Positions 135 through 552 are shown, counted from the first letter of the stretch. The stretch is 586 nt of DNA from Escherichia coli (GCF_003334255.1 NZ_QOWU01000219.1); one strand, 5' to 3'. A program made the numbers and translations. The notes: generated by a model not told the origin, from the sequence alone.

Positions 135-501
135 AAACAGCCATTCCACCATCAACGTGTGTTTTTGCATCTGAGGACATAATCAGAATCACCCGACCAA
201 CATCCGCAAGCTCAACGGATTCCCCCGTTTCACCATCAACGCCACAGAGATGGAGGCAGGTCAGAACTCTGATGCGCGTTAACGCGCCGGATGTTTCCTC
301 ACGAACATCATGAGCCGCGGTTTCCCGCTCCCGGATATCCATATTCATAACCTGTACATCATCGCCGGATGACTGCATTTCCTCTTCCCATTCTGCCACC
401 CGCTGCGCTATCTCTGCGGCACTCCCGGATATATCCGGCTCACGCCCCAGAATCAGGGCCAGTTCATCAAGCCGTTTCAGATTTTGCTCTTTCGTTGCCA
501 T
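127..501 (-). CDS. FI: DNA-packaging protein FI-like (lambdoid head assembly); complete, 124 aa from ATG 501-499 to stop TGA 129-127
   Basis: This is the ORF-track reading frame, trimmed to the internal ATG at 501-499. The product starts MATKEQNLKRLDELALILGREPDISGSAAEIAQRVAEWEEEM, which aligns with my recollection of the lambda FI N-terminus (MTKDELIARLRSLGEQLNRDVSLTGTKEELALRVAELKEEL). An acidic linker and a C-terminal domain follow, as in FI, and the length is close to lambda FI (about 130 aa). A Shine-Dalgarno-like AGGGGG (minus strand, 512-507) sits 5 nt upstream of this ATG. The track's start at 549 is a GTG lying 3 nt after the upstream stop codon, and the extension it adds (MSGGEMPPCLFSQGAD) has no counterpart in FI. 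Confidence 0.85.
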   Translation of the reverse strand: MATKEQNLKRLDELALILGREPDISGSAAEIAQRVAEWEEEMQSSGDDVQVMNMDIRERETAAHDVREETSGALTRIRVLTCLHLCGVDGETGESVELADVGRVILIMSSDAKTHVDGGMAVYA

Positions 502-505
502 ATCA

Positions 506-532
506 GCCCCCTGTGAAAAAAGACACGGGGGC
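506..532 (-). promoter_or_regulatory. Alternative hairpin that sequesters the FI Shine-Dalgarno; mutually exclusive with the terminator-like hairpin
   Basis: Minus-strand RNA GCCCCCGUG(532-524) loop UCUUUUUU(523-516) CAC-A-GGGGGC(515-506) gives a 9-bp stem with a single bulged A (512). Its 3' arm contains the GGGGG Shine-Dalgarno of FI. It shares the 532-527 GCCCCC arm with the upstream hairpin, so only one of the two can form at a time. Confidence 0.3.
507..511 (-). promoter_or_regulatory. Shine-Dalgarno element (GGGGG) for the FI-like gene
   Basis: Minus-strand sequence CACAGGGGGCUGAUAUG: a G5 run with a 5-nt spacer (CUGAU) before the ATG at 501-499. Confidence 0.5.
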
Positions 533-545
533 ATTTCGCCCCCGC
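516..545 (-). terminator. Terminator-like stem-loop followed by U6, directly downstream of the capsid gene stop (candidate partial terminator or mRNA 3' stabiliser)
   Basis: Minus-strand RNA GGGGGC(543-538) GAAAU GCCCCC(532-527) is a perfect 6-bp all-GC stem with a 5-nt loop. It can extend by C544:G526 and G545:U525. It is followed by GUC and then UUUUUU (521-516), and begins 7 nt after the E-like stop. The U-tract is 3 nt from the stem rather than adjacent, so it is not a textbook intrinsic terminator. Confidence 0.35.
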
Positions 546-552
546 TCACGGA

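Follow-up and report, generated by a model that had tools for sequence, protein, structure and literature searches.

We conclude that the FI gene in the analysed stretch of Escherichia coli DNA is very probably translated from ATG 501-499 by initiation led by a Shine-Dalgarno (SD) sequence, giving a protein of 124 aa and about 13.5 kDa that would begin MATKEQN, and that positions 549-502 ahead of it are probably non-coding. This conclusion draws on the boundaries of the family profiles, the alignment of homologues, frame-breaking changes in the spacers of relatives, the lack of codon periodicity in the spacer, the sequestered SD of a competing codon (ATG 534) and curated annotation, and it agrees with an earlier note on this DNA, which had named ATG 501 as the likely start. 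The start itself is already known, as it has stood in curated records since the entry of the phage 21 head operon, and the protein is an ordinary member of the gpFI family, with nothing new in kind. The practical value of the case lies in annotation hygiene, since the same DNA has been deposited with three different FI starts, corresponding to products of 124, 135 and 140 aa.

Gene content of the window

The window, by which we mean the whole analysed stretch of 586 nucleotides, is a segment of a phage-21-type prophage. A prophage of E. coli M16807 matches it with 100% identity, E. coli Nissle 1917 is a further carrier of the prophage, and 1,546 of 5,426 complete E. coli genomes contain a match to it, with 2,290 matching places in all. 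All genes of the window are carried by the minus strand (Table 1), namely the capsid gene, FI (ORF1 of phage 21) and FII (gene 8 of phage 21). The position of FI between the major capsid gene (E) and FII is the same in phage 21, in PGAP-annotated genomes, in lambda and in Gifsy-1.

The capsid gene ends in ...PDEFVVVQVK and the stop codon TAA 555-553, which is followed by TCC 552-550 and GTG 549-547. Read downwards from position 585, this frame passes through the end of the capsid gene, the TAA, SVSGGEMPPCLFSQGAD and MATKEQNLKRL..., and continues unchanged to TGA 129-127. Capsid gene, spacer and FI thus form one reading frame here (499-586), of which TAA 555-553 is the sole interruption. At its other end, FI overlaps FII by 8 nt (127-134, minus strand; ATGCGTGA), a tight coupling that is typical of lambdoid late genes.

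Table 1. Features of the 586-nt window, with the basis of each assignment
Feature	Position	Strand	Basis
Major capsid protein gene, 3' end (homologue of lambda E / phage 21 gene 7)	553..586	-	Translation; M81255, OL657228 and PGAP annotation
Untranslated intercistronic spacer, capsid gene to FI, 51 nt (probable)	502..552	-	Indels in relatives, no periodicity
GC-rich hairpin of terminator-like shape	525..545	-	Scan match, folding, compensatory changes
T6 run (U-tract), 3 nt past the hairpin	516..521	-	Sequence
SD of FI, AGGGGG, 5 nt ahead of the ATG (predicted)	507..512	-	Anti-SD duplex of -9.4 kcal/mol, RBS annotation
FI gene, DNA-packaging chaperone gpFI, 124 aa; start ATG 501-499 (very probable), stop TGA 129-127	127..501	-	Profiles, identity to records
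FII, 5' part, head-tail joining protein; start ATG 134-132, runs off the window	1..134	-	Annotation and sequence

Signals at the candidate start codons

The 140-aa ORF (549..127) that is listed mechanically for this strand begins at the first start-type codon following a stop, and it exists only because, in this allele, FI is in frame with the capsid gene and no stop interrupts the spacer between them. The earlier note had questioned the start of this ORF on several grounds. Its GTG 549-547 does lie only 3 nt past the capsid stop, and its first 16 codons do cross the hairpin region, as had been pointed out; the hairpin itself was confirmed. The codon had also been held to lack a ribosome-binding site, which is mostly true, although a weak AGGTG (563-559) is found 9 nt upstream. 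The two ATG codons put forward in its place both have the G5 runs ascribed to them: ATG 501-499 is preceded by G5 at 511-507 (within AGGGGG, 512-507) at a 5-nt spacer, CTGAT, and ATG 534-532 by G5 at 543-539 at a 4-nt spacer, CGAA.

Duplexes with the anti-SD sequence have energies of -4.5 kcal/mol for GTG 549, -8.6 kcal/mol for ATG 534 and -9.4 kcal/mol for ATG 501. The SD zone of ATG 501 lies outside the hairpin, with a probability of being unpaired of 0.37-0.50, and the site has the sequence features of canonical SD-led initiation, a purine match to the anti-SD sequence located 4-9 nt upstream of the start and predicted to be accessible. A ribosome would initiate here via AGGGGG across the 5-nt spacer. 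As G5 occurs in four copies on the minus strand of the window and is not rare in itself, and as a terminator scan of the single sequence returns 1 site where 0.5 are expected, the case rests on comparative data and not on motif counts.

The FI family begins at MATKE

Significant matches over the full length of two profiles place the protein in the gpFI family, members of which stimulate terminase-prohead DNA packaging and bind the major capsid protein. PHROG 92 (DNA packaging chaperone FI, E = 2.1e-43) aligns with its positions 1-127 of 128 to residues 17-139 of the 140-aa ORF, and Pfam PF14000 (Packaging_FI, E = 1.4e-15) aligns with model positions 1-130 of 131 to residues 19-136. Neither of these two profiles aligns anything to residues 1-16, which supports the earlier claim that the extension MPPCLFSQGAD has no counterpart in FI. 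When the 140-aa sequence was searched against 5.8 billion proteins, nearly all homologues were about 119-133 aa long and covered 89% of the query, corresponding to its 124-aa part. The NCBIfam search of the 140-aa ORF gave no match at E <= 0.001, although PGAP names the gene gpFI, and a sequence search of the PDB gave no meaningful match (best E = 0.49, PBP2X).

An alignment of homologues had been proposed as a way to see where conservation begins. Among the 20 sequences that we aligned, it begins at MATKE, with M17, T19, K20 and E21 invariant or nearly so. The homologues, lambda included, start with M(A)TKE, and the few longer database entries carry extensions that are unrelated or made by gene callers. 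The correspondence of ATG 501 with the lambda FI start, on which the earlier note had relied, holds for the N-terminal match as such but not to the codon: lambda M1 falls one codon after M17 of the window (MTKDE versus MATKE), because BLASTP pairs T19 with lambda T2. Near-invariant columns of the alignment cluster in residues 17-57 of the 140-aa ORF, and the C-terminal half is variable. gpFI is reportedly built of two parts, an N-terminal segment that is conserved and a head-binding C-terminal domain that varies, and the FI protein of the window follows this pattern.

Conservation of the 5' extension in homologues had been named as an observation that would speak against ATG 501, and it seems at first sight to be present. 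The database proteins P0037, P0036 and P0006 start at the equivalent of ATG 534 and read MPPCLFSQGAE or MPPFYIQQGAD. We do not regard this as evidence of coding, since a shared MPPCLFSQGA(D/E) would result from a hairpin and an SD that are conserved as DNA and from gene callers that pick the same ATG.

The spacer in relatives

The decisive test of whether the spacer is coding was a comparison of capsid-FI junctions, gathered from phages in GenBank, genomes annotated by PGAP and contigs of IMG/VR. The spacer length is not a multiple of 3 in 13 of 26 distinct spacers of the first set and in 9 of 24 of an independently retrieved set, which leaves out two further pattern matches that are chance matches. 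The FI ORF that begins at the MATKE ATG is complete in every junction of both sets, with 119-133 aa.

Phage-21-type spacers are 51 nt long and in frame with FI in 62 of 78 distinct contexts. The frame is broken by an additional G (CTGAT to CTGGAT) in eight distinct contexts, which include complete genomes and phage PhiR5_1. Further frame-breaking changes are the loss of a C from the 3' arm of the hairpin, of a G from the 5' arm or of a G from the SD run, the gain or loss of a T in the T-run, and the loss of a G from one arm together with a C from the other. Several of these variants fall in homopolymer runs, which are prone to sequencing error, but the CTGGAT variant does not. In one IMG/VR contig (L204, 2850756110_000002) the arms read GCGGGGC...GCCCCG; the stem is kept, the spacer measures 49 nt and the FI frame is broken.

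In three spacer variants, GGG stands in the place of GTG 549. Lineages whose spacers are of other types lack an equivalent of GTG 549 and contain in-frame stops 9-42 nt ahead of the FI ATG; spacer lengths outside the phage 21 type are 41 nt in lambda, 57 nt in Gifsy-1, 63-64 nt in the L102 type, 49 nt in L112 and 52 nt in L115.

Coding sequence is expected to show an excess of variable sites at third codon positions. Across 37 distinct contexts that keep the 51-nt spacer, variable sites at first, second and third positions number 12/9/29 for FI codons 1-42, as against 10/10/9 for the spacer when it is read in the frame of GTG 549 and ATG 534. The third-position excess in FI and the lack of any periodicity in the spacer thus argue that the latter is not under coding constraint, and the 48 nt from 549 to 502 read, on this comparative sequence evidence, as non-coding.

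Start codons in public records

A start at ATG 501, with a product of 124 aa, is annotated in M81255.1 (phage 21, RBS 512-508), OL657228.1 (RBS 511-507), LR595861.1 and NC_049948.1, and in all five PGAP E. coli genomes inspected, divergent alleles included. Other public phage records use GTG 549 (140 aa; LR595864.1 / NC_049946.1 and OM475428.1) or ATG 534 (135 aa; OM475427.1 and PV340572.1), which bears out the suspicion that automated annotation over-extends this gene. These over-extended forms have spread to RefSeq phage records and to large protein clusters, where they can lead family profiles and structure predictions astray. The literature was searched for direct N-terminal, peptide or initiation-site profiling data on phage 21 ORF1, and none were found.

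Alternative starts

FI could be translated from several starts, with ATG 501 as the main one and a minor N-extended isoform, initiated at 549 or 534, that has a role of its own. We consider this very unlikely. The spacer of this allele is open and in frame, which would be compatible with low-level initiation, but relatives show no selection to keep either the frame or the upstream codons, and any N-extended isoform would therefore be incidental.

It is highly improbable, in our view, that FI starts at ATG 534-532, with the G5 at 543-539 as its SD and a 135-aa product beginning MPPCLFSQGAD. The anti-SD duplex of this codon is nearly equal to that of ATG 501, and the codon is kept in most phage-21-type spacers; besides being annotated as the start in OM475427 and PV340572, it is the type of start found in the 138-aa cluster P0037, which comprises 87 members on 266 contigs. 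Its G5, however, is paired as part of the hairpin's 5' arm and has a probability of being unpaired of 0.1, the spacing is only 4 nt, and the ATG lies partly in the loop and partly in the 3' arm. Moreover, indel variants such as L112 and the CTGGAT lineage have the codon out of the FI frame, and the Gifsy-1 and L102-type spacers lack it. A start at this position would also extend the protein by residues to which nothing corresponds in the PHROG or Pfam profiles, encoded by a spacer that has no codon periodicity.

Equally hard to credit is a start at GTG 549-547, where ribosomes that have ended at the capsid stop would reinitiate without the need for a strong SD and synthesize the 140-aa form. 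The codon lies 3 nt past the stop of the late gene with the heaviest translation and is in frame with it, the terminating ribosome would melt the hairpin, the weak AGGTG lies 9 nt upstream, and the records NC_049946/LR595864 and OM475428 place the start at this codon. Against this stand the weak SD match, the change to GGG in three variants, and the finding that the codon is out of the FI frame or separated from FI by a stop in half of the distinct spacers; an equivalent codon is absent from lambda, Gifsy-1 and other lineages, and the family profiles leave residues 1-16 unaligned.

Finally, readthrough of the capsid stop or reinitiation at GTG 549 that yields a minor capsid-FI fusion or an N-extended FI, a minor species like T7 10B or Q-beta A1 that could put the packaging chaperone on the shell, is exceedingly doubtful, because the frame relation of the capsid gene and FI is not conserved in relatives; a spacer variant without the capsid TAA stop did not occur among the 24 distinct spacers.

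Translation of the 124-aa protein from ATG 501 is thus the reading that we retain.

A conserved hairpin and T-run in the spacer

The spacer hairpin consists of a 5' arm GCGGGGGC (545-538), a loop GAAAU (537-533) and a 3' arm GCCCCCGU (532-525), which form a stem of 8 bp closed by a 5-nt loop, with a folding energy of -17.3 kcal/mol. The terminator-like scan match (545-525) continues into GTCTTTTTTC, with the U-tract offset by 3 nt. A GC-rich stem-loop and a U-tract on the transcribed strand give the element the shape of a putative intrinsic terminator. Statistics from this single sequence are modest: shuffling gave z = -0.85 for the 107-nt context and z = -2.13 for the spacer, besides the scan result given above. 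The argument is therefore comparative.

Across 17 phage-21-type spacer variants, 99.3% of the cells are paired, and two pairs have changed in a compensatory manner, one in L131 from G-C to A-U and one, as aligned, in L112 from C-G to G-C. All seven spacers tested fold better than their shuffled versions, with z from -1.66 to -3.31. The compensatory pairs, the paired deletion in L204 and the presence of non-homologous hairpins in at least five other lineages, each with z between -1.7 and -3.3, point to a structure under selection; a hairpin unrelated in sequence is found in L112 as well. Searched against Rfam at E <= 1, the window had no match.

All lineages compared have the same elements in the same order, beginning within a few nucleotides of the capsid stop: first a GC-rich hairpin, then a T-rich run, next a purine motif that resembles an SD, and finally ATG GCN ACN AAA GA. 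The SD-like motifs (GGGGG, GGAGG, GGGAG, AGAGG, GGGAGG and AAGGA) lie 3-9 nt from the ATG and form anti-SD duplexes of -5.5 to -11 kcal/mol. The hairpins are unrelated in sequence between this window, lambda, Gifsy-1, L102 and L115; the arms are GCGGGGGC/GCCCCCGU here, ATGGCCC/GGGCCAT in lambda, AAAGGCCTG/CAGGCCTTT in Gifsy-1, GGCCC/GGGCC in L102 and GAAGGGCC/GGCCCTTC in L115. Judged from these comparisons, a hairpin and T-run distal to the capsid gene, followed by the SD, is a layout that is conserved across lambdoid lineages in spite of unrelated sequences.

Possible role of the hairpin

Within the late operon, which is antiterminated by Q, the hairpin most likely serves as a terminator-like element. 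Such an element would shield the highly expressed upstream message, which reaches from Nu1 to the capsid gene, from 3' exonucleases; alternatively, it would trim transcription into the downstream genes. Intra-late-operon terminators at the end of the procapsid module have been described in P22-like phages, where their role was stated as unknown and either partial termination or the blocking of non-antiterminated transcription was suggested (PMC8022706). In the window, the stem starts only 7 nt past the capsid stop, so that a terminating ribosome would hinder terminator action on well-translated transcripts. Experiments with tR2 have found that terminators a few bp past a stop codon are almost fully repressed by the terminating ribosome (PMC4824070). 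The closeness of the stem to the stop codon and the tR2 data together favour a 3'-exonuclease barrier or a stop for unmodified polymerase over a strong attenuator, and we lean towards a hairpin that would act as such a message-stabilising barrier or as such a stop. Our literature search on a lambda E-FI hairpin found nothing direct.

Translational coupling was also considered for the spacer, and was dropped as a conserved mechanism. The minimum free energy structure of the spacer pairs UCCGUGA (552-546) with UCAC-GGG (516-510), which includes part of the SD, and a ribosome might thus unmask the SD; in 11 lineages, the SD was no less accessible than when the first 10 nt were shuffled. Masking the footprint of a ribosome at the stop does not free the SD and has no effect in lambda, Gifsy-1 and L102. 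In phage-21-type spacers this masking lowers SD accessibility, because the freed C5 arm pairs with the G5 of the SD.

The spacer contains a G5/C5/G5 set (507-545, minus strand), in which CCCCC 531-527 can pair with either the G5 at 543-539 or the SD G5 at 511-507. With the 5' arm masked, the predicted accessibility of the SD falls from 0.50 to 0.16. This drop is seen in the phage-21-type spacers L001, L010 and L131 and in L112, and is not seen in L084 and L004, which are of the phage 21 type too, or in lambda, Gifsy-1 and L102. The alternative pairing is probably a by-product of base composition.

Mosaicism and unusual database records

DNA similarity of the window to PhiR5_1 and the O104:H4 prophage amounts to 88% from the end of the capsid gene through the spacer to about FI codon 40, and then stops. 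It covers query positions 1-207 and ends at about position 380 of the minus strand, ~120 nt into FI. At the protein level, the C-terminal half of FI is 44-58% identical in divergent alleles. The same N-terminal segment of FI is joined to a lambda-like C-terminal domain in P0048 and to an unrelated C-terminus in P0040 and P0041. This distribution points to a mosaic junction inside FI, which would separate the conserved N-terminal segment from the variable C-terminal domain.

Several database entries that touch on FI have unexpected names or shapes. PHROG 15460, a profile of 80 positions named 'terminase', matches FI residues 1-62 (316-501) with its positions 1-60 at E = 2.9e-16, and probably consists of truncated FI proteins that have been misnamed, unless the N-terminal module is truly shared. 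Two PHROG profiles named 'major head protein', with 481 and 473 positions, contain an FI-like tail, and positions 346-472 of phrog_2353 align with residues 3-133 of the 140-aa ORF; the presence of this tail indicates that these families hold fused capsid-FI ORFs. One database fusion that was inspected, P0080, looks like a frameshift caused by a homopolymer error. The record P0002, listed as 'DNA-packaging protein FI [Pseudomonas aeruginosa]', has 153 aa and comes from a contig of 682 nt; it shares 96% identity with the E. coli prophage protein described here and carries an N-terminal extension unrelated to it. Contamination or misassembly is the likely origin of this record.

Comparison with known phages

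The closest known system is phage 21, whose ORF1 product (M81255.1 AAA32347.1; OL657228.1 UMO75424.1; WP_000201530.1) is 100% identical to the 124-aa protein. At the DNA level, phage 21 is 98.8% identical to the window, with 7 base differences over 585 nt. The order of capsid gene, spacer, FI and FII is the same, as are the annotated start and RBS, and we see no difference of substance.

In lambda, gpFI (J02459 7202-7600, 132 aa) occupies the same place between E and FII and shares the N-terminal segment, with 16 of 40 residues identical. The layout past the capsid stop is also the same, with hairpin, U-rich stretch, SD and ATG in this order. The C-terminal domains, in contrast, are barely alignable, and the overall identity in the alignment is 24%. 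The lambda spacer of 41 nt is out of frame with E, and its hairpin, ATGGCCC-TTCG-GGGCCAT, is unrelated in sequence to that of the window.

With the terminators that follow the procapsid module in phage L / P22 (PMC8022706), the spacer element shares a GC-rich stem and a T-run directly past the major capsid gene, and its location inside an operon with a single antiterminated promoter. It differs from them in that the T-run lies 3 nt off the stem and the stem 7 nt past the stop codon.
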